Made by a program: the position numbers and the translations under genes | Source: Candidatus Woesearchaeota archaeon | GTDB lineage: Archaea > Nanobdellota > Nanobdellia > Woesearchaeales > ARS49 | Length of the DNA stretch: 64,000 bases | NCBI GenBank assembly: GCA_014729505.1 | Contig: WJJS01000001.1 | Span: 12,938 to 76,937 of the forward strand | Direction of reading: 5' to 3' | Shown here: in pieces, positions 3,867-54,187 of the stretch | Layout: every line of letters starts with the position of its first letter | Position numbering within the stretch: the first letter of the stretch is position 1 | The notes under the pieces: generated by a model | What the model saw: the letters and a program-made list of their open reading frames with translations, nothing else | Databases searched by the model: none | What the model was told of the DNA's origin: nothing

Positions 3867-3928
3867 TTAACACTCTTTATGAGTAATAAAATATTTCTGA
3901 ACATCTTTTTGTTCATCCAAGCATCTGT

Positions 3929-6550
3929 TCAGTATTTCCTGAACAGCTTCACGATTTCGCCGAAAATCAAAACACTGGACGCTACAGCAGCAGCAATCAT
4001 CCAATCCATAAATGAAAGCGGAATCGTCTCAAAAAGAGTATTGAAAATACCAAGATGCACACTTGCAATTTGCAAACCAAAACTGAGCAACACCGCACCA
4101 ATCAACCATTTGTTAGACCATAACCCTACCGTAAAAATTGATTTCGTCTCAGAACGCTGATTAAGCACGTTAAACAACTGGAAAAGAACCAAGGTAGTAA
4201 AAGCCATCGTTTGCGCATATGTTTTATTCACCTCAGGCTCGTACCATTCAAACACAAAAAGAGTGCCAGCCATCATCAAAAGGCCAATAAACAACATAAG
4301 ACCTGCCCTGCTCTTGTTAACAATCTTTTCATCAATATCGCGAGGCTTTCGCTCCATAACTCCCGGTTCTTTAGGATCAACACTTAAACTCGTCGCAGGC
4401 AATAAATCAGTGGCAAGATTAATCCACAAAATCTGTCTTGCAGTTAACGGATCAATAAGGCCGAGAAGCGTTGCCACAAAAATAGTCAAAATCTCGCCGA
4501 CATTGCTTGATAACAAGTATATGACAAACTTCTTGATGTTATCATAAATAACGCGACCTTCTTCAACTGCACGAACAATAGTTGCAAAATTATCATCGGC
4601 AAGAATCATATCGCTGGCCTGACGAGAAACATCAGTACCAGTGATACCCATTGCAATGCCAAGATCAGCCTTCTTTAAAGCAGGAGCATCATTAGCACCG
4701 TCACCCGTCATAGCAACAATATGCCTGTTCTTACGCAGTGCATCGACAATATGCAGTTTATCCTCTGGATTAACACGGGCATAAATACTAATCTTTTCAA
4801 CATCACGCGAAAGATTGATAGACTCAAGCTCTACACCCTCAATAGCCCTGCCCTCAAGACCAATCTGTTTACCAATCGCTTTAGCAGTACCGAGATGATC
4901 GCCAGTAATCATCACCACCTTGATACCTGCAGCATTGCACGTCTTAATTGCTTTTTTAACCTCCTCTCGAGGAGGGTCAATCATGCCCTGCAACCCAATA
5001 AAGATCATGCTCTTTTCAATATCATCATGACTCAATTCATCCTTGAACTCCTTATAACAAAAACCAAGAACGCGCAAAGCCTGACTGGTAAATTCATCAT
5101 TTGTTTCAAGAATATGATCCCGATCCTCTTTAGTCAGCCGACGAACCTTTCCATCAACCAACATATGAGTACAAAAACCAAGCACCACTTCAGGAGCGCC
5201 CTTCGTATACGCCGTCTTCTTACCTTCAAAAGTGGAATGAATCGTCGTCATACACTTGCGTTCAGAACTAAAATCGATTTCATCAACGCGCGTATTATCA
5301 GAACGCACCTTGTCAAGATCAATACCTGACTTTGCTGCACTGACCAATAAAGCACCTTCAGTAGGGTCACCGACAATACTATGACGGCCCTGCTCCACAT
5401 CAAGCTGGGCATTATTGTTCAACACTCCTGCACGCAATAACGTATCAAGAGAGGATGTCTCTTTGGAAAAATCACCCTTTGGTTCATAACCAGAACCAGT
5501 TACCTGAACCACCTGTCCATCAACATACAGTTTTTTAACAGTCATCTCGTTATGCGTCAGCGTACCCGTTTTATCGGTACAAATCACCGTACACGCGCCC
5601 AGCGTTTCAACACTTGGAAGCTTGCGCATCAACGCCTTCTTCTTAGCCATGCGCTGCACGCCAAGAGCAAAAGCAATAGTAACCACTGCAGGCAAACCCT
5701 CAGGAATAGCAGCGACTGCAAGGGCAACAGCCTTTTCAAACACTTCAAGAAGATTTTTACCCAACAACACATCAACGCCAATCATCACCATAGCGATCAA
5801 GACCACCGCAGCAGTAAGCTGATATGCCAGTTTCTTGAGATCCTTTTGTATCGGCGTGGGCTCGCTTTTTGTCTTTTTGAGCATAGTTGCAATCTTACCG
5901 ATCTCAGTACGCATGCCAGTAGAAGTGACAACCGCCTTGCCGTGACCGGCAGTAACTGTCGTGCCAGAAAACACCATATTCTTCTGATCACCAATAGACA
6001 AACGATCAGCAATTCTCTTCACATCCTTTTTAACAGGAACAGATTCCCCGGTCAAAGCCGCTTCCTGCGTTTGCACATTCACCGCATCAATAAGACGAGC
6101 ATCTGCAGGCACAATATTACCTGTCTCCAGCACAATAATATCGCCCTTCACCACTTCTTCAGCAGGAATTTCGCGCCGACGACCATCACGAATAACAATG
6201 GCCTTAGGACTCACCATCTTACGCAATGCTTCAATAGATTCCTCGGCCTTATACTCCTGCCAAAAACCAAACAACGCATTAGCAATAACAACAATTGTAA
6301 TAACGTAAAAATCAATAAACTCTTGTAAAAACAAAGAAATACCCATCGCTGCCAAGAGAATCCAGACAAGAGGACTTGTAAACTGATGCAAGAAGATCAC
6401 AAACGGACTTATCTTCTTTTCACGCTCAAGAGCATTTTTACCAAACTTTTGCAAACGCTCCTTAGCCTGAGATTGTGATAATCCTTCCTTAGAAGAAGCA
6501 ACCTTATCAAATACCTTCTCCAAAGGCAGTTGATACCACTCTTTTTCCAT
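3929..6550 (-). CDS. P-type cation-transporting ATPase (P2/Ca2+-type-like)
   Basis: Motifs [24 protein letters not shown] and [21 protein letters not shown] are present. The protein is 873 aa with multiple transmembrane segments. Confidence 0.9.
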
Positions 6551-17517: not shown

Positions 17518-17605
17518 AGTCTCTTTTTTATTGCAGGAAAAAGTTCAAAGTTATAAACTTTTCAGCGACAATTTTTTAAAGAATCCGATGAAAAAGCATC
17601 CGTAC

Positions 17606-17640
17606 GGGCCGGTAGCTCAACCTGGTAGAGTGCTCCGTTG
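17606..17640 (+). repeat. Direct repeat: duplicate of tRNA-Ala nt 1-35 (5' segment)
   Basis: GGGCCGGTAGCTCAACCTGGTAGAGTGCTCCGTTG is identical to 17730-17764. Confidence 0.85.
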
Positions 17641-17696
17641 CGATGCTTTCGCCCATCGACAGCGAGGTCCGATCTCACTTGCGTGAGATCCGACAG
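17641..17696 (+). repeat. Conserved ~55-nt hairpin element (copy 1), tRNA-associated
   Basis: CGATGCTTTCGCCCATCGACAGCGAGGTCCGATCTCACTTGCGTGAGATCCGACAG contains a 12-bp hairpin, TCCGATCTCAC/GTGAGATCCGAC. It matches 20053-20108 at about 85% identity. Confidence 0.7.
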
Positions 17697-17729
17697 TTTT
17701 ATGAATAGGTGTTTTTAGTATACGTTTAT

Positions 17730-17803
17730 GGGCCGGTAGCTCAACCTGGTAGAGTGCTCCGTTGGCTTCGGAGAGGCTGCGGGTTCAAATCCCGCTCGGT
17801 CCA
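17730..17803 (+). tRNA. tRNA-Ala (anticodon GGC), no intron
   Basis: Manual fold: acceptor GGGCCGG/TCGGTCC with G3:U70, D-arm GCTC-AACCTGGTA-GAGT, anticodon stem CTCCG/CGGAG with loop TTGGCTT, T-arm GCGGG-TTCAAAT-CCCGC and discriminator A. Confidence 0.85.
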
Positions 17804-17857
17804 TGGGTGGCCTTGACGCCCTTTTTTTGATCAAACTTTTTGTAAAAGTTTGCGGTT

Positions 17858-17879
17858 AGAGGCTGCGGGTTCAAATCCC
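17858..17879 (+). repeat. Partial duplicate of the tRNA-Ala 3' portion (variable arm plus 5' T-arm)
   Basis: AGAGGCTGCGGGTTCAAATCCC matches tRNA-Ala nt 44-65 but lacks the acceptor 3' strand. Confidence 0.7.
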
Positions 17880-18127
17880 TTCAGGCTCATCTTGAAACTG
17901 CTCGCGCAGTTTCGTGTTTTTTCACCTGCGATGAAATGCGGCACTCAACCAACTGCTGAAACCCCTCTCACACCATTCTTCAGACCAGTTCTCGACCACA
18001 CCATGGCCCGAACGGTGCGCTTGCTGCCTATAGTCGTCAACAACACGGTAGTTTTACCGGATCTTATCCTTCTTGTTTTACGATTTGTCCACAAGGTTTA
18101 TCAATGAGAGCGTGACAACACCATATT

Positions 18128-20031: not shown

Positions 20032-20046
20032 TGGTGGCGGAGTGGC
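20032..20046 (+). repeat. Direct repeat: duplicate of the tRNA-Met 5' end, including 4 nt of flank
   Basis: TGGTGGCGGAGTGGC is identical to 20132-20146. Confidence 0.8.
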
Positions 20047-20052
20047 ATATTC

Positions 20053-20108
20053 CGATGTTTTCCGCCATCGACACGGAGGTCCGATCTCGCTTGCGCGAGA
20101 TCCGACGG
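20053..20108 (+). repeat. Conserved ~55-nt hairpin element (copy 2), tRNA-associated
   Basis: CGATGTTTTCCGCCATCGACACGGAGGTCCGATCTCGCTTGCGCGAGATCCGACGG. Confidence 0.7.
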
Positions 20109-20135
20109 TAGTCAAGTAACACGAGTATCATTGGT

Positions 20136-20253
20136 GGCGGAGTGGCTTAGCCTGGTTAGAGCACCGCGCTCATAGGTCATACCTTTGAGCACTGAGCTTT
20201 CGAGCTATGACGAAGAAACGCGGGGGTCACGAGTTCAAATCTCGTCTCCGCCA
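20136..20253 (+). tRNA. tRNA-Met (CAT), elongator-like, with a 43-nt intron at 37/38
   Basis: Manual fold: acceptor GGCGGAG/CTCCGCC, D-arm GCTT-AGCCTGGTTA-GAGC, anticodon stem CCGCG with loop CTCATA|intron 20175-20217|A then CGCGG, variable GGGTC, T-arm ACGAG-TTCAAAT-CTCGT and discriminator A. Confidence 0.75.
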
Positions 20254-20396
20254 CTTTTTTATGGTGGGTGAGTGTAAGCGAACCCTCCTTTTTTTTCACA
20301 TTTTTCTCAAAAATTTGGTTTATTTTTTTGTCTTTGCCACTTTTTTTGTGCTGTTGAGCGTTAGCGAGGCGCACTTGTCATTTCACAGTACCATGC

Positions 20397-21284: not shown

Positions 21285-22355
21285 TTGCAGATCATGGTTT
21301 ATTCGCTAGTCAGACCGCTGCTTTTTCGCATGGACGCAGAAAAAGTACATCATCGCCTCGTCAGGTTAGGAACGATGCTCCAACAAGTTCCCCTCGTCTT
21401 GCCGGTGCTTCGCAGTATCTTCACGTATCAGCATCCCGCACTACACGTACAAGTGGACGGCGTAGCGTATGAAAACCCGATAGGGTTAGCAGCAGGTTTT
21501 GACAAAAACGGCGAAATACCTCGATTTATGAGCAGTTTTGGTTTTGGACACGTAGAAATAGGCTCTGTGACAAGTAAACAACACACAGGCAATCCAAAAC
21601 CGCGAGTGCATCGCGTAATAGAAGAACAAGCATTAGTTATCAATTATGGACTAGCAAATCACGGTGCTGCAACAGTAAAACGACGAATAGCAGCGTATGA
21701 TGAAAAGATGCCTATTGGAATTAGCATCGCAAAGACACCCCGCGTAGGAGGAGAACAAGGGATACGCGATTACGCACAATCATTTAGAGATCTATCCATG
21801 CATGGAACGTATACGACGATAAACATCAGTTGTCCAAATGTGGCAGACGGAGAAACGTATGGAGAGAATCCCCGATTATTGCGATCTTTATTGCAAACAC
21901 TCTCAAAAGAAAAAATCGTCTCACCCGTATATCTCAAACTCAAACCAGATTATTCGCACAAACAAATCGATGACATACTCGAGGTTATCAATTCGTTTCC
22001 GTTTGTAAAAGGAGTAATCATCGGCAATCTCACAAAAGAACGAAAAGGGGCAGTCGCGAAAAGAACAGAGTCGGGCGGTATCAGCGGAAAACCAACTAGA
22101 AACAAAAGCACAGCATTAATACGATACGTCTACAAGAAAACAAATGGTCAACTCACCATTATTGGGTGCGGCGGTATCTTTACTGCCCAAGACGCGTATG
22201 ACAAAATAACATCCGGAGCAAGCATGTTACAACTCATAACGGGCATGATCTATTTAGGACCTAGCACCATAAGAAACATCAATAAAGGGCTTGTTACACT
22301 GCTCGAACAAGACGGATTTAAAAGCATCACCGAAGCAACAGGTTCGCGAGCGTGA
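21285..22355 (+). CDS. pyrD: Dihydroorotate dehydrogenase (quinone), class 2
   Basis: The N-terminal membrane-association helix is followed by GLAAGFDKNGE and GFGHVEIGSVT.... The C-terminus is IIGCGGIFTAQDAYDKITSGAS. Confidence 0.85.
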   Translation: MQIMVYSLVRPLLFRMDAEKVHHRLVRLGTMLQQVPLVLPVLRSIFTYQHPALHVQVDGVAYENPIGLAAGFDKNGEIPRFMSSFGFGHVEIGSVTSKQHTGNPKPRVHRVIEEQALVINYGLANHGAATVKRRIAAYDEKMPIGISIAKTPRVGGEQGIRDYAQSFRDLSMHGTYTTINISCPNVADGETYGENPRLLRSLLQTLSKEKIVSPVYLKLKPDYSHKQIDDILEVINSFPFVKGVIIGNLTKERKGAVAKRTESGGISGKPTRNKSTALIRYVYKKTNGQLTIIGCGGIFTAQDAYDKITSGASMLQLITGMIYLGPSTIRNINKGLVTLLEQDGFKSITEATGSRA

Positions 22356-22413
22356 AAGAAAACCACGTTCAAATCCGTAAACTTCTTAACTGGGGCATTT
22401 TATGTGCATATAT

Positions 22414-22427
22414 GCCGACGTCGCATA
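22414..22427 (+). repeat. Direct repeat: duplicate of tRNA-Ser nt 1-14
   Basis: GCCGACGTCGCATA is also present at 22540 and 22756. Confidence 0.8.
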
Positions 22428-22437
22428 CTCTGCGTAT

Positions 22438-22462
22438 CGATGTTTTCCGCCATCGACACGGA
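22438..22462 (+). repeat. Partial copy (copy 3) of the conserved tRNA-associated element
   Basis: CGATGTTTTCCGCCATCGACACGGA matches the first 25 nt of the element at 20053. Confidence 0.6.
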
Positions 22463-22539: not shown

Positions 22540-22718
22540 GCCGACGTCGCATAATCTGGTACGCTAAAAAACGCATTAGCGTTTTTGGCGCGCCGAAAAG
22601 CTTTGCTTTTCTCGCGTTGCGCCGGTCTTGAAAACCGGTTCCCTTGGGTGCTCGAAAATCTGCGATTTTCGGCACGTACAAAAGCTGACGCTTTTGTCCG
22701 TATCCCGTTTCAAATCCG
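22540..22718 (+). pseudogene. tRNA-Ser(TGA) pseudogene with two large insertions and a degenerate 3' end
   Basis: GCCGACGTCGCATAATCTGGTA, a 55-nt insertion, TTGCGCCGGTCTTGAAAACCGGTTCCCTTGGGT, a 52-nt insertion, then ATCCCGTTTCAAATCCG. The acceptor 3' strand is missing. Confidence 0.6.
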
Positions 22719-22755
22719 TAAACTTCTTAACTAGTGGCATTTCATGCGCATATAT

Positions 22756-22837
22756 GCCGACGTCGCATAATCTGGTATTGCGCCGGTCTTGAAAACCGGT
22801 TCCCTTGGGTATCCCGGTTCAAATCCGGGCGTCGGCG
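22756..22837 (+). tRNA. tRNA-Ser (TGA), class II with a long variable arm, no intron
   Basis: Manual fold: acceptor GCCGACG/CGTCGGC, anticodon stem CCGGT/ACCGG with loop CTTGAAA, variable arm TTCCCTTGGGTAT, T-arm CCCGG-TTCAAAT-CCGGG and discriminator G. Confidence 0.8.
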
Positions 22838-22891
22838 TTTCTATGACGCGAAAGCGTCATCCCATTTTTGAAGTAGTGATTTGAACCGGGG
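22833..22891 (+). repeat. Left copy of a perfect 59-nt direct repeat (last 5 nt of tRNA-Ser plus 54 nt downstream); att-like
   Basis: CGGCGTTTCTATGACGCGAAAGCGTCATCCCATTTTTGAAGTAGTGATTTGAACCGGGG is identical to 23742-23800. Confidence 0.85.
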
Positions 22892-23068
22892 CCAGTCAAG
22901 CTTTGCTTGACGTTGTCCTGGTTTCAAATCCGGGCGTCGGCGTTGTGGGCGCGTTAGCGCTCTTTTTTGTTGTTGTGATTTGAACCGGGGCCAGTCAAGC
23001 TTTGCTTGACGTTGTCCTGGTTTCAAATCCGGGTGTCGGCGTTGTGGGCGCGTTAGCGCTCTTTTTTT
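22843..23068 (+). repeat. Tandem repeat, ~99 nt x ~2.3. Each unit contains an inverted T-arm-like palindrome and ends with the tRNA-Ser 3' end sequence.
   Basis: The unit is TTGTGGGCGCGTTAGCGCTCTTTTTTGTTGTTGTGATTTGAACCGGGGCCAGTCAAGCTTTGCTTGACGTTGTCCTGGTTTCAAATCCGGG(C/T)GTCGGCG. GGGCGCGTTAGCGCTC followed by a T-run is terminator-like. Confidence 0.8.
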
Positions 23069-23135
23069 GATTGCTGCATCATTTCGAATCTAAACCATAA
23101 CCTTTATAAACTATGGCCACTATAGTAACTATAGT

Positions 23136-23336
23136 ATGCCAACAACTATCCAACTCAGCAAAGAAACCAAGAAGCTAATAAGCACGTTTGGTTCCAAAGA
23201 AGATACTTACGACACGATAATTAGAAGACTGTACAAATTAGCTGTTAAGGAGCAACTGAAAGAATTCTTGCTCTCATCAGAAGGAACAATGCCGATAGAT
23301 GAGGCGATTAAGAAAGCCAAGAAAAAATGGCAATAG
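23136..23336 (+). CDS. Small RHH/antitoxin-like protein (putative)
   Basis: 66 aa, MPTTIQLSKETKKLISTFGSKEDTYDTIIRRLYKL. It overlaps the next ORF by 10 nt. Confidence 0.4.
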   Translation: MPTTIQLSKETKKLISTFGSKEDTYDTIIRRLYKLAVKEQLKEFLLSSEGTMPIDEAIKKAKKKWQ

Positions 23337-23668
23337 TAGAGATTACGAAAACACTCTATGAACAGATAGATCGAAAATTCAAAGGAAAAAGTGTCAAAGT
23401 ATTACAACATTTGAAATCATTAGAAGAATCGCCAAAGAAAGGAAAACTCCTAGGAACCATAGGAGGAATAGTGATTAAAGAAGTAAAGTATGAAGGTTTC
23501 AGATTTTATTTCATCACCGACGGATTCAAACTCAAATATACCTCCTCTGAAGATCTTACCGACTTACTTTTGCGGGTTGTAAGAATGTCAGATAAGAAAC
23601 ATCAGCAACAGACTATCGACGAGATCAAACAGATTCTACTAACCATCGGTGTTGAAGGTTTGACTTGA
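23327..23668 (+). CDS. RelE/ParE-like toxin candidate (putative)
   Basis: KSLEESPKKGKLLGTIGGIVIKEVKYEGFRFYFITDG resembles the RelE/ParE core. This is sequence-pattern judgement only. Confidence 0.35.
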   Translation: MAIVEITKTLYEQIDRKFKGKSVKVLQHLKSLEESPKKGKLLGTIGGIVIKEVKYEGFRFYFITDGFKLKYTSSEDLTDLLLRVVRMSDKKHQQQTIDEIKQILLTIGVEGLT

Positions 23669-23741
23669 TAGCCTTCCTTGGCTTGATGTAATGCAAACCG
23701 CATGCACAGGTAAAAAATAACTCAAAAGAAGCCCAGAACCA

Positions 23742-23800
23742 ACCATACACCGGCGTTTCTATGACGCGAAAGCGTCATCCCATTTTTGAAGTAGTGATTT
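23742..23800 (+). repeat. Right copy of the perfect 59-nt direct repeat
   Basis: Identical to 22833-22891. Confidence 0.85.
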
Positions 23801-23854
23801 GAACCGGGGATCTTTGCTTGGCAGTATGCTGATGAAAATACGGCGTTTCAAGAA

Positions 23855-24286
23855 TTATATCAAACCAGTAATTGCTGCAGAGACAAAGAAAATGATGAGG
23901 AAAAAACCAAGCATAATCACATTTGCAGCGATCATGAACCCGAGCCAGACAAGACCGACAAGAGCGCCCTTACCGTAATCAACATGCAACATCCACGAAG
24001 GCAAAAGCAAATACAACGCGAGCTGTACGATCATACCAATAGCACTGATAATGATACTTGCAAACGAGCCCACATTCATAGCAAGCAATCCTATAAGAGC
24101 ACTGAACACGCCAAGAATCAGCGCAGGCCACAACGATTGCACATACGTTCGCGGCACATGAAAAATCTTCGCACTCAACCACAACAGCAAGGCACTAAGA
24201 GGAGTAAAGATAACAAAAACAACAAGAGAGACAATAAGTGTTCCAAGAAAACTCAGGTATGGCAGCTGAGGCTCAACGATCGTCAT
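23855..24286 (-). CDS. Hypothetical membrane protein
   Basis: 143 aa with 4 predicted TM helices. Confidence 0.5.
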   Translation of the reverse strand: MTIVEPQLPYLSFLGTLIVSLVVFVIFTPLSALLLWLSAKIFHVPRTYVQSLWPALILGVFSALIGLLAMNVGSFASIIISAIGMIVQLALYLLLPSWMLHVDYGKGALVGLVWLGFMIAANVIMLGFFLIIFFVSAAITGLI

Positions 24287-24382: not shown

Positions 24383-24625
24383 TCACTCGATATCCTCATC
24401 AGCTAACAACGCTGGTTCAGTAAAACCCTGCAGCATATCAAGAATCTGAATAATATAATCCTCGTCCACCTCAGTAAACTCATTACCCTGCATACTGTCA
24501 AGAAAATCCTGAAATAATTTAAAAATCTGAGCCTTTTTCATACCTTTCTCAGACAAATCAAGAACTACTTGCTGCAAAGCTTGCAGAGGGTCAGCAGAAC
24601 GAAGAGCGTTTTTTATTTGTCGCAT
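24383..24625 (-). CDS. Small acidic hypothetical protein
   Basis: 80 aa. Its ATG overlaps the S10 stop codon. Confidence 0.4.
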   Translation of the reverse strand: MRQIKNALRSADPLQALQQVVLDLSEKGMKKAQIFKLFQDFLDSMQGNEFTEVDEDYIIQILDMLQGFTEPALLADEDIE

Positions 24626-33863: not shown

Positions 33864-35107
33864 ATGCAATGCAAAGACAATAATAAAGTTTATAGCAAAC
33901 GTCATGTTCTTACCAGTATGCGCGTTTTTGAAAGAGGGGAACTGAGACTCTTATGGCCGTTTTATGCCGATTATCTACTATCACAACTACTCTTTTTTGC
34001 ACCAGCGTTTTACATCGTGTATTTTCTGGATATTGGCCTGTCCTTGTTTCAGTTAGGACTTGTTATGGCTGCAGCACCACTGGCAGGTCTGCTCTTTGAG
34101 ATTCCAACAGGAGCCGTAGCAGATCTGTACGGGAGAAAATTTTCAGTCCTGCTAAGCTTTCTACTGGTAGCAGCAGGTTATTTGCTTCTCTTCTTCTTTA
34201 CAAGTATCCCAGCACTTATTGCCATTTTTGCGTTAATCGGATTTGCAGGAACATTCTGGTCGGGAGCAAAAGATGCGTGGGTTGTTGATCTTATAGGAAA
34301 AAGAAAAACATTACTCCAAATTATTTTGCAAAAGCAGATTTTCTCAGCAGTCTTGGACTAGTCATATCAGGCATCCTTGGAGCGTTCATTGTTGAAGTCA
34401 TTGGCCTACGATCCATATGGTTATTTGCTGCAGGTGCGTACGCGATATCATTTGTAGTTCTACTCACAGCCCCTGAACGTTATCGCAGACGACACACTTC
34501 ATTTAGTCGAGCTCTTAAAACTGTAACACAACAAAGCGGGGATGCGTTACGATACTGTCGAATGCACCACATACTTTACGCATTTTTCATTGCAAGCGCT
34601 CTTTGGCTTATCGCAGGAGCAATAGGAGGAGTCATGGCATGGACACCCTTTCTTATCGAACTTGGTTTTGCAGAACAACACTTTGGCTACTTGTGGAGTG
34701 CGATGGCCGTAGTACAAATGATGGGACTTGCCATCTCACAATTCGCTCTAAAAACGATCTCGTCTCGAAAAGTGATCATTGTTGCCCAGTCATTGTTTGC
34801 TGCAACTCTCCTTGCCGTGTATTGGGTATCTTCACTGCCGTTTGCGTTGTTACTGGTACTGTTTAGCATCTTATTTGCCTCAGCAAAAGCACCTTCATTA
34901 AACGTGTTCTTTCATCGGTTTACTCCTTCATACATGAGAGCAACCATCGGTTCAGTCAAGGCAACACTCGGCGCAGCTATAGCCATACTCATGATGCCGA
35001 TTTCAGGACATTTTATTGACACTATAGGTGCTCAAAACGCATTATTTAGCGCGGGACTTGCATTACTGCCTGCAGTAGGGATATACCTGCTAATGAAAGA
35101 ACACTAA
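33864..35107 (+). pseudogene. MFS transporter interrupted by a frameshift in an A-rich run near 34296-34310 (pseudogene or sequencing error)
   Basis: The N-terminal-half ORF (to 34361) and the C-terminal half (the frame is open from 34289) are both polytopic. The second frame reads ...LSSLGLVISGILGAFIV, continuous with the 34562 ORF. Confidence 0.6.
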
Positions 35108-38088: not shown

Positions 38089-38127
38089 ATTTTTTTTCCT
38101 TTTTCGTATATGTGAATGCAATTAACA
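38087..38127 (+). repeat. 41-nt direct repeat (copy 1), a duplicated ferredoxin 3'-end remnant
   Basis: TTTTTCCTTTTTCGTATATGTGAATGCAATTAACAGGAC is identical to 38219-38259. On the - strand it encodes a remnant ...PVNCIHIYEKGKKI*. Confidence 0.75.
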
Positions 38128-38209
38128 GGACGAGCATTCTGCCGCTGTTTTTGCCCAGCGGTTGCAATGCGTGACGCTCGGCTTTGCCTCGATCACGCAG
38201 TTAGAATTT

Positions 38210-38467
38210 CTAGATTCTTTTTTTTCCTTTTTCGTATATGTGAATGCAATTAACAGGACAACACTCTGCGGCGTCCATATTATCTTTGAGATCATCGAGT
38301 TCGAGATGTTCTTCAAGACCGACCTTTTTGGCTCCCTTCAAATCAACTTTGCCATCATCACTTATCGTCCAAAATTCTTCAGCAATAGCAGTACAACTAC
38401 CACAACCAATACATTCAGAACGCTCATGAACAATCCTGAACTTTTTATCTTTGTTTTTCTCAGGCAT
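38210..38467 (-). CDS. 4Fe-4S ferredoxin
   Basis: ECIGCGSCTAI plus AECCPVNC. The protein is 85 aa. Confidence 0.75.
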   Translation of the reverse strand: MPEKNKDKKFRIVHERSECIGCGSCTAIAEEFWTISDDGKVDLKGAKKVGLEEHLELDDLKDNMDAAECCPVNCIHIYEKGKKRI

Positions 38468-40009: not shown

Positions 40010-40324
40010 ATGGGACATACCGTATGGAGCCAACGGATGAATGCAGAGCGCATCATCACAGAACTACTTCGTTACAAGAAAGCATTGCGAAGCGAACAAC
40101 AAGCACTGTTTGACGAATTACTGAAACGATCCATGAATCATCTCGGTACCATAAGTTACGCAAACAGCATGCACACCTGGGCATTACTGCTCTTATCAAT
40201 ACTACTAGAACAAGAACAACGCATAAAGAAACTAGAACATGTGGTTAATAGATACCTATCAAAAAAAGAACAAGATCGTCGTGTGGCTGAAAACGAAAAC
40301 GACGAATATGCATCGAACCTATGA
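40010..40324 (+). CDS. Hypothetical protein; 3' end overlaps the polymerase gene start, so the extent is uncertain
   Basis: 104-aa ORF that overlaps 40239..42794 by 86 nt in another frame. Confidence 0.3.
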   Translation: MGHTVWSQRMNAERIITELLRYKKALRSEQQALFDELLKRSMNHLGTISYANSMHTWALLLLSILLEQEQRIKKLEHVVNRYLSKKEQDRRVAENENDEYASNL

Positions 40325-42794
40325 GTACTCTGTCACACTCTACGCACACGAAGATGCACGAGAATTCCTTACAACGAACAAGATTGCTTTTACAGAACAA
40401 CTCAAAAAAGATCCTTTTCGCAACAAGAAACATGTTCTTGCCATAACGTTATCATGCGAACGACTCGCACCATTTGTAAGATGGTTTGAACTCGGCACCA
40501 AACACCGCATACCGCTTTACAATGCAGATATCACGCCGGAACAACGCTTTCTTTACGAGAACAAGCTAGTACCGTGCAGCAACGTGCGAGACGTTGATGG
40601 GAGACTTGTACACGTCAACGAATCCGCACCACCGCTAAGCACTGTTCATTTGCGATGCGCCACACAAGGACCTATTACACGATTAGAATACCAGGATCAC
40701 ACTATCGTAGGCGAGGAACGAGAAGTACTCGCGCATTTTACGCAACGCTTCAGACAGGACGATCCAGATGTACTACTTATGCGACGAGCATACAAAGCAG
40801 TACCACATCTCTTTGAACGGTTACGTGCGAACGGATTGCACGTGCCTTTTCATCGATGGGATGAGATACCGCTGCGCCACCGCGGCGGCAAGACACACTT
40901 CAGTTACGGAAGAGTATATTATCAAGATCACTCGTTTCAACTGCGAGGACGATTACTCGTTGACACGGCAAGCAGTGTAGGATCAACATGCTCTGTACCT
41001 GCAATCATCGAACTTGCACAGCTCACAGGCACTCGATTCCAACGCGTAGCAGCACGCAGTTTCGGTGCCTCATTTCAACTTCAACTCGTCAAAGAACTGC
41101 TCGCCCAAGATCTGCTTGTGCCATACAAGGAAAAACCCTTTGATGAACCGCTGCGCATGACAGAGTTATTCGACGCAGACAGAGCAGGACATACCTTTGA
41201 TCCTCAACTAGGATTTCACAATGATGTTGTAGCAATAGACTTCTCAAGCATGTATCCATGGATCATCCACAACTACAACATCAGCGCAGATACCATACTC
41301 ACAAAAAAAGGAAAGAAGACCAAGATTCCTGCAGTACCAATTGATGTAACCACACAATATCAAGGAGTGATACCAAAAGCAATCAAACCATTGTTAGATC
41401 GACGCATGTACTACAAAAAACATCCGACGCCGGAAAACAAACGACGAGCAATAGGACTAAAAACACTGCTCGTGACCTGTTATGGTTATCTGCGATTTCG
41501 CGAATTTAAAATGGGACTTGCCACATCACACATGGCAATTTGTTCATACGCGCGAGAACTCCTCCTACAATCAGCAACGCTTGCAGAAGAACAAGGCTTT
41601 CGCGTCATTCACGGCATCATCGATTCACTCTACATATCAAAAAAAGACATTACCACAACAGAAGTCGAAACATTTCGAAAAGAACTAGAACACATGAGCG
41701 GTATACCCGTTGCCTGCGATGGCATCTTCAAATGGATCGTGTTTCTTTCACGACGACATGACAACACTGTCGGAGTGCCGGCCCGTTATTTTGGCGCATA
41801 TAAAAATGGTGGCATTAAAGCAAGAGGTATTGAAGTACGACAATCGAGTGCGCCGCTACTTATACGACGATTCCAACAAAACGTGTTAGAAGAGCTCGCA
41901 GCGTTTTCAACGAAAAGAGCGATACAGGATCACTTGCCACAAGTCATGAAACGCGCACGAGCAGTCCTGCACGATCTGCCTGCGACGCCACGAGAAGAAC
42001 TGTGTTGCAGAATACGCATCAGTAAGACCACGTATTCTCGAAACATTCCACAACGGCAAGTGATACGCTTGTTAACACAACAAGGGAGAGACATTATCGC
42101 TGGACAGGTCATACGGTTCTGGTACAGTGCGAATGGACCGTTACTAGTCGATATGACTGGAAGGCCAGACTACAAAAAATATCGCGATTTGTTATTACGC
42201 GCAATACACTCAGTGTACCAGCCTTTCGGTTATACTACCAAACAACTACAACACCTCCTATTAGACGAATATCAAAGCGTTCTGCAAGATTTTGCGCGAC
42301 AACAGATCCGCTACGAATACGTGCCTATGAAAAAACACTATGCACAAAAACGAGGACTGTCAGAGAGAATCCTGCGACAACGACTGGAACGACAAGGATG
42401 GACGGTGTGGCGCGGCGGCAGCATACATATTACTCGTTATGAAGAACTGTATCCCAACGTACGACGAAAGTACGAATTACTCATCCGTCTGCTTGACGAT
42501 CATAAGCCAGACACAAAAGAAATACTGCAATATTATTGCATGATACAGCACGGCATGCCAGATTTTCTCTGCTACAAAAATGGACGATTCAAATTTGTTG
42601 AATGCAAATTGCAATACGAGCAATTAAGTCATCGACAAAAACGCTGCATTATGAAGCTACAAGACCTGGGATTTGATGTGGAAGTTCACAAACTCGTTGA
42701 CAAACGCACAAAAATGAGAGAGGCACTAGTTGACATGTTTACCAATTGCAAAATAGTACGAGAACGACAACTAGCCCTACTCTCAACATGGTGA
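40239..42794 (+). CDS. Divergent family-B DNA polymerase (exonuclease-dead, motif C degenerate; PolB2/Dpo2-like) fused to a C-terminal PD-(D/E)xK Hjc/VRR-NUC-like nuclease domain
   Basis: The PolB N-terminus is WLIDTYQKKNKIVVWLK.... The exonuclease region is present but Exo I reads LRCAT, not FDIET, and Exo II has no YN..FD. GRLLVD and motif A DFSSMYPWII are present. Motif B is K..LVTCYGYL, the KxY region is YFGAYKNGGIKARGIEVRQSS, and motif C is IHGIIDSLY (vs YGDTDS). The C-terminal domain reads ERILRQRLERQGWTVWRGG ... GMPDFLCYKNGRFKFVECK (D...E-x-K). Confidence 0.65.
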   Translation: MWLIDTYQKKNKIVVWLKTKTTNMHRTYEYSVTLYAHEDAREFLTTNKIAFTEQLKKDPFRNKKHVLAITLSCERLAPFVRWFELGTKHRIPLYNADITPEQRFLYENKLVPCSNVRDVDGRLVHVNESAPPLSTVHLRCATQGPITRLEYQDHTIVGEEREVLAHFTQRFRQDDPDVLLMRRAYKAVPHLFERLRANGLHVPFHRWDEIPLRHRGGKTHFSYGRVYYQDHSFQLRGRLLVDTASSVGSTCSVPAIIELAQLTGTRFQRVAARSFGASFQLQLVKELLAQDLLVPYKEKPFDEPLRMTELFDADRAGHTFDPQLGFHNDVVAIDFSSMYPWIIHNYNISADTILTKKGKKTKIPAVPIDVTTQYQGVIPKAIKPLLDRRMYYKKHPTPENKRRAIGLKTLLVTCYGYLRFREFKMGLATSHMAICSYARELLLQSATLAEEQGFRVIHGIIDSLYISKKDITTTEVETFRKELEHMSGIPVACDGIFKWIVFLSRRHDNTVGVPARYFGAYKNGGIKARGIEVRQSSAPLLIRRFQQNVLEELAAFSTKRAIQDHLPQVMKRARAVLHDLPATPREELCCRIRISKTTYSRNIPQRQVIRLLTQQGRDIIAGQVIRFWYSANGPLLVDMTGRPDYKKYRDLLLRAIHSVYQPFGYTTKQLQHLLLDEYQSVLQDFARQQIRYEYVPMKKHYAQKRGLSERILRQRLERQGWTVWRGGSIHITRYEELYPNVRRKYELLIRLLDDHKPDTKEILQYYCMIQHGMPDFLCYKNGRFKFVECKLQYEQLSHRQKRCIMKLQDLGFDVEVHKLVDKRTKMREALVDMFTNCKIVRERQLALLSTW

Positions 42795-46024: not shown

Positions 46025-46106
46025 TCCCCGCCCCCGGACTCAGCGTTAACCTGCGGTTAACTGGCTGCAGAAAACACTTCGTGTTTTTGCAGTGAACCAG
46101 GAACCT
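46025..46106 (-). repeat. Partial duplicate of the tRNA-Tyr 3' portion (variable arm to 3' end) with a 50-nt hairpin-rich insertion in the T-loop
   Basis: The minus strand reads AGGTTCCTGGTTCA, then a 50-nt insert, then AGTCCGGGGGCGGGGA. Perfect palindrome TGAACCAGGAACCTGGTTCA is on the plus strand at 46093-46112. Confidence 0.65.
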
Positions 46107-46144
46107 GGTTCAAGCCTTGTAAGATATTGTTTCCAAAAAGAAAA

Positions 46145-53574: not shown

Positions 53575-53901
53575 TAACAGTAGTTTTTTTTTTCGAGAAT
53601 ACAGGTTGTTGCGTTACAGGTTATACCTCAAGCCAGTACCAGAATTTTCTACCGTAGCGCTTATCGCAGCCCTGATGGTAGTTGTTGGAGGTTTCTTGAT
53701 AGTAAGGCGGCAAGCTTAAGGATTTTGGCCTAATCCGCTCAATTTTGGCCCGTTATCACCAACTAGGCCTTAAAAAGGGTAAGATTTATAAACCCCCTCA
53801 AGTTTTTTTGGAAAAAATGGCGGGTAGACATAATTCTCACTGAACTGCAAACTATGTGAGTGAGACGTCTATCACACGTGAGGAGTCATAATGACCCTTG
53901 C

Positions 53902-54025
53902 GCCCTGGTAGTGTAGTGGCCTATCATGAAGCCCTGTCGAGACGAAAACCGTCGCATAAAGGCTTCGACCCGGGTTCAAAGACGGCGTCGGGTTAACCGA
54001 TCCGCTGAAATTCCCGGCCAGGGCG
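53902..54025 (+). tRNA. tRNA-Asp (GTC) with two introns: 20 nt at 37/38 and 30 nt in the T-loop (59/60)
   Basis: The exons read GCCCTGG TA GTGT AGTGGCCTA TCAT G AAGCC CTGTCG|...|A GGCTT CGAC CCGGG TTCAAA|...|T CCCGG CCAGGGC G. They are near-identical to a typical archaeal tRNA-Asp. Confidence 0.7.
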
Positions 54026-54063
54026 TGTGCTCAGCATCCAGCATGCTGGGAGTATACAACAAA

Positions 54064-54179
54064 GGGCCGGTAGCTCAGCCTGGTAGAGCACCTGACTTTT
54101 ATGAAAGTCAAGGACATCAGGTGGTCGCGAGTTCAAAACGATCCCGCGTATGCGGTTCGTGAACGTCTCGTCCGGCCCA
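54064..54179 (+). tRNA. tRNA-Lys (TTT) with two introns: ~14 nt at 37/38 and ~28 nt in the T-loop (59/60)
   Basis: GGGCCGG TA GCTC AGCCTGGTA GAGC A CCTGA CTTTTA|...|A TCAGG TGGTC GCGAG TTCAAA|...|T CTCGT CCGGCCC A. Confidence 0.65.
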
Positions 54180-54187
54180 TTTTTACT

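Follow-up and report, generated by a model that had tools for sequence, protein, structure and literature searches.

The gene for tRNA-Ser(UGA) in a Woesearchaeota genome is flanked on both sides by partial copies of itself, and the copies on its downstream side enclose a two-gene operon that is predicted to encode a toxin-antitoxin (TA) pair. We studied this locus in a 64-kb stretch of DNA (the window) from a 79-kb contig of a Candidatus Woesearchaeota metagenome-assembled genome, which is the single assembly on record. Our leading explanation, which we hold tentatively, is that the flanks are debris from repeated recombination that began or ended within the tRNA, mostly in its T-loop; that this debris was amplified locally; and that the TA operon is cargo. 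An earlier note on this DNA had compared the downstream segment to integron cassettes or to arrays of attachment (att) sites, and had offered the decayed remains of serial events at tRNA-Ser as a fallback. The observations in that note are partly confirmed and its interpretation is partly supported, with the fallback fitting best.

The features from the intact gene onward are:
22756-22837, plus strand: intact tRNA-Ser(TGA), intron-less (Rfam RF00005, 58.5 bits; ARAGORN places it at 22755-22838)
22818-22922, plus strand: unit a (105 nt), with T-loop to 3' end, T1 hairpin, inverted T-arm (22876-22891), and inner hairpin GTCAAGCTTTGCTTGAC
22833-22891, plus strand: left copy of the 59-nt perfect direct repeat (final 5 nt of the tRNA, trailer hairpin T1 and its T5 run, inverted T-arm)
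22923-23021, plus strand: unit b (99 nt), with tRNA 3' fragment, T2 hairpin GGGCGCGTTAGCGCTC with a T6 run, inverted T-arm (22975-22990), and inner hairpin
23022-23102, plus strand: start of unit c: 3' fragment (one mismatch), T2' hairpin and T7 run, and CATCATTTCGAATC, a degenerate inverted T-loop at about 23084-23097
23103-23135, plus strand: putative promoter and operator of the TA operon, with TATA box TTTATAAA (23103-23110) and two palindromic ACTATAGT repeats (23119-23135)
23136-23336, plus strand: 66-aa putative antitoxin, DUF7557 (PF24434, 21.7 bits versus a cut-off of 25)
23327-23668, plus strand: 113-aa putative toxin of the RelE/ParE superfamily, whose gene overlaps the 66-aa gene by 10 nt
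23669-23750, plus strand: right flank of the operon, 82 nt, which in alignments is unlike the flanks of homologous operons
23751-23809, plus strand: right copy of the perfect 59-nt direct repeat
23810-23860, plus strand: degenerate continuation of the unit, ATCTTTGCTTGGCAG...GCGTTTCAAGAAT, up to the stop codon of a 143-aa gene on the minus strand (75% repeat-family match, and alignment)

No perfect 59-nt repeat is expected by chance, and the only genes in the segment that the two copies bound are those for the 66-aa and 113-aa proteins. The earlier note was right that the final 5 nt of the tRNA open this repeat, but it put the second copy at 23742-23800. This copy is at 23751-23809, so it had been placed 9 nt too far left, and an end coordinate of 23800 cuts it. 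Beyond the 59 nt, similarity resumes at 75% after a 7-nt gap (repeat-family analysis and alignment), so that the perfect repeat is the core of a longer unit that has diverged. The earlier note had taken membership in a larger duplication as a sign against its reading, and this is half borne out, as the repeat does belong to a larger family of repeated units. There is also a 99-nt tandem repeat at 22865-23067 (full units at 22865-22963 and 22964-23062). It has 96% matches, and about 2.1 copies instead of the 2.3 copies that had been reported.

Measured from T-loop to T-loop, the units downstream of the tRNA are 105, 99, ~709, and ~115 nt long. Every unit combines the terminal 20-26 nt of the tRNA with a GC hairpin whose trailer is a T-run and with an inverted copy of the T-loop or T-stem, 61 nt past the T-loop; an inner hairpin is present as well. 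The inverted T-arm (GTGATTTGAACCGGGG) has three exact copies, while just 0.38 would be expected even if 3 mismatches were allowed. The 3' end of the tRNA is found within each unit as TTCAAATCCGGGCGTCGGCG, and a 22-nt block that runs from the T-loop to the 3' end (TTCAAATCCGGGCGTCGGCGTT) occurs three times and is common to the repeats. The folding of the repeat region is far stronger than that of shuffled sequence (z = -7.3). The earlier note had described the palindrome, the tRNA 3' end, and the terminator-like hairpin with its T-run, and all of them are there. In the alignment, copies that are farther from the tRNA are more decayed.

Comparisons with other archaea indicate that the downstream unit predates this genome and is more widespread. 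In two other Woesearchaeota (L008 and L045), tRNA-Ser(TGA) is followed by a hairpin, by an inverted T-loop 61-62 nt past the T-loop, and then by a decayed direct T-loop piece. The T2 hairpin of unit b is similar to the trailer of tRNA-Ser in L008. If one 59-nt copy and the insert are deleted from the window, then what is left (the tRNA, T1, the inverted T-loop, and a degenerate fragment) is the simple layout of L008 and L045. L008 is the closest syntenic relative that we found. It has tRNA-Ser(TGA) between PyrD and S10, as in the window, and it lacks the two small genes. As an empty site it is an imperfect comparison: the TA pair is missing, but the genome is distant (its PyrD is 56% identical) and the locus is rearranged. 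We found no relative that is close enough for a comparison at the DNA level.

As a control, we examined 111 loci with tRNA-Ser(TGA). Most of these are from among the listed matches of a 22-mer from the anticodon arm in a scan of a genome collection; the 22-mer is too conserved, and the matches listed were mostly from bacteria and haloarchaea, with one from Woesearchaeota. Across the 111 loci, an inverted match of at least 8 nt was found only in the 3 Woesearchaeota, at the same offset in 7 loci from Halorubrum or Haloarculaceae, and in 1 bacterial terminator. Among the matches listed, a second direct copy of the stretch from T-loop to 3' end was present within 400 nt at 8 of 31 archaeal loci (all 8 are haloarchaeal) but at none of the 65 bacterial ones. 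In haloarchaea the unit recurs with a period of 100-144 nt, and one genome has three copies. The 3' end is followed by a trailer hairpin, by GGATTCGAA (63-64 nt past each T-loop), and by a spacer that leads to the next 3' end. One or two extra copies of the 3' end and trailer follow tRNA-Ser(TGA) at haloarchaeal loci (L022, at 3927-4090; L120, L083, L061, L099, L125, L127, L034, and L100). Across Halorubrum species, the unit is present, decayed, or absent beside a conserved downstream flank. In 13 of 15 units, the inverted T-loop tracks the G/A variant in the T-loop of its own unit (manual count; Fisher p ~0.007, for lineages that are not independent). This would be expected if both are partner sites that need an identical crossover sequence. 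We found no description of these tRNA-Ser units, including the haloarchaeal copies, in the literature that we searched.

The operon within the repeats comprises two overlapping genes, as the earlier note had stated. The 113-aa protein is predicted, from a high-confidence structural model, to have a RelE/ParE fold and is a putative toxin, and the RelE/ParE-like core that had been proposed for it is upheld. The protein from the window had no match to models from Pfam, NCBIfam, or PADLOC, and profile searches of the 66-aa and 113-aa proteins against the sequences in PDB gave nothing. Among 34 members of the 113-aa family, however, divergent ones do have matches: 5 to ParE_toxin (PF05016; best E = 4.5e-9) and 2 to Gp49 (PF05973). 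An AlphaFold2 (AF2) model that was built from a diverse alignment has a predicted local distance difference test score (pLDDT) of 88.5. (An earlier model from a shallow alignment was poor, with a pLDDT of 60, and its fold search was meaningless.) The best match for the good model in Foldseek was an archaeal RelE (1wmi_A; probability 1.00, template modeling score 0.73, root-mean-square deviation 2.6). Other top matches were RelE1 from M. tuberculosis, HigB2, ParE, and HigB, and 6 of the 7 best-ranked chains are RelE, HigB, or ParE toxins. G39, R59, K90, and Q93 are invariant in the family. Woesearchaeota and Nanoarchaeota encode over 1500 homologues of the 113-aa protein, which are 112-113 aa long and 64-78% identical to it. 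The family is narrow, since an exhaustive profile search yields only 133 clusters at 50% identity. For the 66-aa protein there are 448 homologues, and about a third of these have a precomputed match to PF24434 (DUF7557). A ribbon-helix-helix (RHH) fold is plausible for this protein, judging by its sequence. We found no description of DUF7557 in the literature that we searched.

Wherever the 66-aa and 113-aa genes are found, they are linked and overlapping. The pair is conserved across Woesearchaeota at 64-85% identity in unrelated contexts, and the homologous pairs have no tRNA-Ser nearby and no flanking repeats. The earlier note had considered the pair to be promoterless, and this does not hold: a TATA box and CTATAG operator repeats upstream of the ATG are conserved in four genomes (the window, L001, L004, and L007), as TTTAtAaACTATgG..ACTATAGc..CTATAGtATG. 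(The operator repeats also registered as a 9-nt tandem.) The mRNA would be leaderless. Past the stop codon, nothing is conserved in an alignment of the operon's homologues. Because of its own conserved promoter and likely operator, and the lack of conservation beyond the stop codon, the operon is an autonomous module of ~570 nt.

On the other side of the intact tRNA gene there are more pieces, which the earlier note did not mention:
22368-22435, plus strand: T-loop piece, promoter, and first 22 nt of tRNA-Ser (5' fragment 1; the fragment itself is at 22414-22435), from repeat families and a blastn match of tRNA positions 1-19
22438-22462, plus strand: first 25 nt of CE57 (a conserved 57-nt element, see below), directly after 5' fragment 1 and identical at 25 of 25 nt to the copy upstream of tRNA-Met
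22540-22718, plus strand: pseudo-tRNA-Ser "copy A", which ends in the T arm
22709-22755, plus strand: second T-loop piece and promoter, immediately 5' of the intact gene, from repeat families

The block of T-loop piece, promoter, and tRNA 5' end is repeated at a spacing of 341 nt. Copy A consists of tRNA positions 1-22, a 55-nt insert with two hairpins (22562-22616), positions 23-55, a 52-nt insert with two hairpins (22650-22701), and positions 54-72; the inserts contain T4-T5 runs. None of the upstream pieces, copy A included, had a tRNA score at E ≤ 10 with Rfam. Copy A has a promoter-like TTAAAAG box whose spacing from the gene equals that of the box in L008, so the disrupted copy A may be the older one.

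Similar partial copies are found at other tRNA genes, and these too were absent from the earlier note. Overall, 4 of the 6 tRNA genes that we examined in the window are flanked by partial copies of themselves; the two genes with T-loop introns have none, which for six genes is only a hint. At tRNA-Ala(GGC) (17603-17889), the first 35 nt are copied 124 nt upstream and positions 43-64 are copied 86 nt downstream. It looks as if a complete gene cassette was inserted into the anticodon loop of an older copy. At tRNA-Met(CAT), which has one intron, the first 14 nt are copied 100 nt upstream (20032-20049), and a decayed copy of the 3' end and trailer (74% identical) lies 86 nt downstream (20244-20367). 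In L008, the last 19 nt of tRNA-Met and TTTT (ATCTCCCCGCCGCCATTTT) occur again 81 nt downstream, with a two-hairpin filler in between (1838-1957). Downstream of tRNA-Tyr(GTA) (46025-46114, minus strand), an inverted T-arm (CTTGAACCAGG) abuts a direct T-arm fragment; this 3' fragment is split in the T-loop by a 52-nt insert with two hairpins and is then completed by AGTCCGGGGGCGGGGA. The remaining two genes, and the element CE57, are:
53900-54026: tRNA-Asp(GTC), with a canonical intron and a T-loop intron
54064-54180: tRNA-Lys(TTT), with a canonical intron and a T-loop intron
17641-17697: CE57 at tRNA-Ala
20053-20109: CE57 at tRNA-Met
22438-22462: CE57 at tRNA-Ser, first 25 nt only

The genes for tRNA-Asp and tRNA-Lys were missed by ARAGORN and at Rfam's gathering threshold, and ARAGORN calls both of them once the introns are removed in silico. 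Their T-loop introns contain a short TGAA(C), which is complementary to the T-loop. CE57 (CGATGyTTTC..CCATCGACA..GAGGTCCGATCTCrCTTGCGyGAGATCCGAC) serves as filler after the 5' ends that are duplicated upstream of tRNA-Ala and tRNA-Met; behind the tRNA-Ser fragment, its first 25 nt are present. The copies at tRNA-Ala and tRNA-Met match at 49 of 57 positions, with one compensatory change from A-T to G-C in the second hairpin. The ancestral promoter of tRNA-Met lies before the gene in L008 and before the fragment in the window, so CE57 and the duplicated 5' end were inserted. CE57 had no match in Rfam or in a metagenome scan, and its core had two matches in a viral scan, both of which are chance matches in GC-rich coding DNA. 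The idea that CE57 is a decayed 3' half of a tRNA is unsupported, as no alignment exceeded z = 2.5.

To explain the debris around tRNA-Ser by recombination, we suppose that circular DNAs with a T-arm-like core would recombine with the T-loop of the tRNA, by Campbell-type integration, using a tyrosine-integrase-like protein that is encoded elsewhere. Most of the element DNA would then have been lost, and the short leftovers would have been amplified or homogenised by unequal crossing-over and gene conversion. These processes would account for the 96% identity of the tandem repeat and for the perfect 59-nt repeat. The TA operon would have been retained as cargo, and we propose that it survived because its loss is penalised. 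(In this scenario the enzyme, the circular stage, and the sequence of steps are inferred. What we observed directly is the anatomy of the locus, the protein family, the autonomy of the operon, and the recurrence of the unit in other archaea, where species differ in having or lacking it.) We count the block that is common to the repeats, TTCAAATCCGGGCGTCGGCGTT, in favor of this explanation: it corresponds to the stretch from T-loop to 3' end that is the classical identity block of integrases that target the T-loop (Williams 2002, as relayed by PMC9897764 and PMC8371274).

Integrative elements are known to leave partial copies of tRNAs as attL/attR repeats (Reiter 1989; Williams 2002; survey in PMC9897764). 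As at our locus, these are direct repeats of the 3' part of the tRNA from the T-loop onward, with an intact gene at one end and displaced fragments beyond it, and arrays can accumulate if one site is used repeatedly. In contrast to those elements, which have 9-23 kb between the repeats, the repeats in the window are separated by 40-80 nt, or by 0.86 kb where the TA operon is included. The segment in the window also lacks an integrase gene, its units hold an inverted T-loop at a fixed distance, and there are 5' fragments with a common filler, CE57. Another comparison is with the tRNA-Thr locus of Caldiarchaeum subterraneum, which has a 5' tRNA fragment, a 1.8-kb insert that bears a recombinase, and a tRNA whose intron content has changed (PMC3293823). 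In both cases, a 5' fragment lies upstream of the functional copy, and the old and new copies differ in their introns or inserts (copy A versus the intact tRNA-Ser). However, the Caldiarchaeum insert encodes the recombinase and occurs six times in its genome, whereas the intervening DNA in the window is 37-104 nt and non-coding. The archaeal introns in T-loops of tRNAs resemble our units in that a short stretch complementary to the T-loop occurs a few tens of nt further on, but at tRNA-Ser this stretch measures 9-13 nt, lies outside of a complete gene, and has a duplicated 3' end behind it. As for the cargo, the 113-aa protein is predicted to share its fold with type II toxins such as RelE of RelE-RelB (Pyrococcus horikoshii, PDB 1wmi), ParE of ParE/ParD, and HigB, and the pair has the small upstream partner, the overlapping stop and start, and the palindromic promoter repeats of type II TA systems. 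It differs in that the partner is DUF7557 instead of RelB or ParD, and in that the family of the putative toxin is narrow and unusually conserved, and the protein from the window is undetected by models from Pfam, NCBIfam, or PADLOC; we know it from sequence and a structural model.

Several results weigh against recombination at the T-loop as the source of the debris. The overlap of the 59-nt repeat with the tRNA is just 5 nt and does not extend back to the T-loop. The 5' fragments break at positions 22 (tRNA-Ser), 14 (tRNA-Met), and 35 (tRNA-Ala), of which only 35 is a classical crossover site. Units of ~100 bp are near the lower physical limit for circles made by a recombinase. GC content is ~43% all along, and the insert does not differ from its surroundings. 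We found no match to integrase or transposase families among the 35 largest open reading frames (ORFs) of the window, in agreement with the earlier note, and no integrase within 4.5 kb beside tRNA-Ser in Halorubrum laminariae (L023). Neither viral scans nor BLAST against phages and plasmids turned up a virus or plasmid with a matching attP. In the viral scans, the 16-mer of the inverted T-arm had 13 raw matches, whose contexts were not inspected; the only match for the 3' end of tRNA-Ser was in a haloviral tRNA array; and the haloarchaeal pattern of trailer and inverted T-loop had 81 random matches, none of them beside a tRNA-Ser 3' end. BLAST of the Halorubrum unit against collections of phages and plasmids gave nothing useful, and a scan of metagenomes with the 22-mer from the repeat gave no matches. 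Finally, a site without any tRNA (38090-38259) has a perfect 42-nt direct repeat (at 38090 and 38218, a spacing of 128 nt) around an 86-nt hairpin-rich filler. This repeat adjoins the 3' side of the gene for ribulose-phosphate 3-epimerase, and its pattern of a long repeat and a small filler is the same as at the tRNA genes.

That last site counts in favor of an origin without any recombinase. By this account, tRNA genes in these genomes would be fragile sites, and staggered breaks or stalled forks could be repaired by fill-in, template switching, and snap-back synthesis; this would give partial duplications of 17-60 nt with hairpin-rich or palindromic filler, and the TA operon would have been captured during one such repair. 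We consider this possible but doubtful. It fits with the fillers, which are almost wholly short hairpins; with the varied positions of the break points in the tRNAs; with the palindromic junctions at tRNA-Ser and tRNA-Tyr, where an inverted T-arm abuts a direct one; and with tRNA-Met, where the filler opens with a stretch that pairs with the 5' fragment. Repair leaves unexplained why the same 57-nt filler, CE57, is at three tRNA loci, why the inverted T-loop is fixed at 61-64 nt in two phyla, and why bacteria lack any such unit. The fixed layout could instead mean that the trailer hairpin and the inverted T-loop are a functional cis-element of archaeal tRNA-Ser(UGA) genes, which might provide an alternative pairing in the pre-tRNA for 3' processing or termination, or a pair of sites for a protein; the repeats and the TA insertion would then be secondary. 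Layout and spacing are kept in three Woesearchaeota whose PyrD proteins are at most 56% identical and in several genera of haloarchaea, the structure of the hairpin is kept while its sequence varies, the inverted copy tracks the T-loop variant, and the complement TGAA(C) recurs in the T-loop introns of tRNA-Asp and tRNA-Lys. Yet many haloarchaeal tRNA-Ser(UGA) loci do without the element, it is visibly decaying in several species (for example, at L044 and L028), and it matches no family in Rfam. Also, T5 runs precede the inverted copy in the window, so that copy may not be transcribed. On balance we think that a cis-element is improbable. Two other roles were considered for the inverted T-loop and rejected: a C/D-box guide RNA for Cm56 (by eye, there are no C or D boxes beside it) and a tRNA on the minus strand (the T stem cannot form).

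The remaining alternatives are less credible. By the earlier note's analogy, the 99-nt units would be folded sites of the attC type, and the TA pair would be a promoterless cassette that is moved in trans by an integron integrase. In its favor, the units are strongly folding, imperfect palindromes, TA cassettes are common in integrons, and short palindromic sites alternate with cargo in both cases. Integrons have been reported in Archaea, including the DPANN archaea (PMC9668308). But the analogy fails on every defining feature that we tested. There is no adjacent IntI with attI and a Pc promoter, and none of the window's 35 largest ORFs matches an integrase or recombinase family; the borders of the units lack the GTTRRRY/RYYYAAC pair (the GTT heptamers GTTGTCC, GTTGTGG, and GTTAGCG do not fit GTTRRRY), and hence the R'/R'' motifs of attC; the arms of the palindromes are the T-arm of the tRNA itself; the operon has its own conserved promoter; and homologous operons elsewhere lack any such site. 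We judge it extremely unlikely that this is an integron-like array. We hold it to be just as unlikely that the pieces function together as a tRNA-Ser that is split or has several introns, to be joined by the splicing endonuclease and a ligase. Multi-intron tRNAs, including ones with T-loop introns, do exist in this genome, and the insertions in copy A are clean and of intron-like size. Against this, an intact, intron-less tRNA-Ser with the same anticodon adjoins the fragments, copy A has no 3' end and a damaged T stem, and there are T4-T5 runs in the inserts. A scan for strict bulge-helix-bulge motifs found none at the borders of the inserts in copy A, but the scanner also missed the genuine introns of tRNA-Met, tRNA-Tyr, tRNA-Asp, and tRNA-Lys. 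An assembly artefact is unlikely, too, and decidedly so. There is only one metagenome-assembled genome, with no second assembly on record, and 59 and 99 are default k values of MEGAHIT, so the insert might be a mis-threaded loop or a chimera of strains whose repeats equal the assembler's k-mer sizes. However, 4 positions distinguish the tandem copies from each other, the lengths of other repeats (17, 22, 38, and 42 nt) bear no relation to these values, and genomes of haloarchaeal isolates have the same type of unit, with repeats of ~60 nt.

The genes around the locus run in the order PyrD (21285-22355), tRNA-Ser, the two small genes, a 143-aa membrane protein (minus strand), S10, aEF-1alpha, and aEF-2. 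NCBI has entries that are 100% identical to the 113-aa, 66-aa, and PyrD proteins of the window; GF342_00205 and GF342_00200 are the locus tags of the two small proteins. An 80-aa ORF that separates the 143-aa gene from S10 (24383-24625, minus strand) has a non-significant match to the Pfam family Integrase_2 (E = 0.036, 13.6 bits), and we did not accept it as the remnant of an integrase. Elsewhere in the window, a transporter of the major facilitator superfamily (33864-35107) is apparently in two ORFs (165 and 181 aa) with a gap of 200 nt and no repeats at the break, and it may be a frameshift or a pseudogene. An 851-aa ORF (40239-42794) combines a region of family B DNA polymerase with a C-terminal VRR-NUC nuclease domain.

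Archaeal mobile elements dock mainly at tRNA genes, and the introns and splits of tRNAs have been proposed to be a defence against such docking. A more far-reaching possibility, which we regard as speculative and rather unlikely, is that the T-loop-to-T-loop units of ~100 nt represent a kind of minimal insertion unit, non-coding and so far undescribed. They would dock at the T-arm, would be moved in trans by a recombinase that is specific for the T-loop, would be able to carry cargo such as a TA operon, and would be common to Woesearchaeota and Halobacteria; CE57, with the duplicated 5' ends at tRNA-Ala, tRNA-Met, and tRNA-Ser, would be a second such unit. If so, these units would be an archaeal, tRNA-anchored counterpart of integron cassettes. 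Even if the units are only scars, they call for caution in annotating tRNAs and in calling the boundaries of islands in DPANN genomes. A previously unannotated family of RelE/ParE-like proteins with a DUF7557 partner, which is widespread and unusually conserved in Woesearchaeota, is now defined (we found none of this family in viral contigs). And because the unit recurs in haloarchaea that can be cultivated, its origin, and any function that it may have, can be tested genetically.

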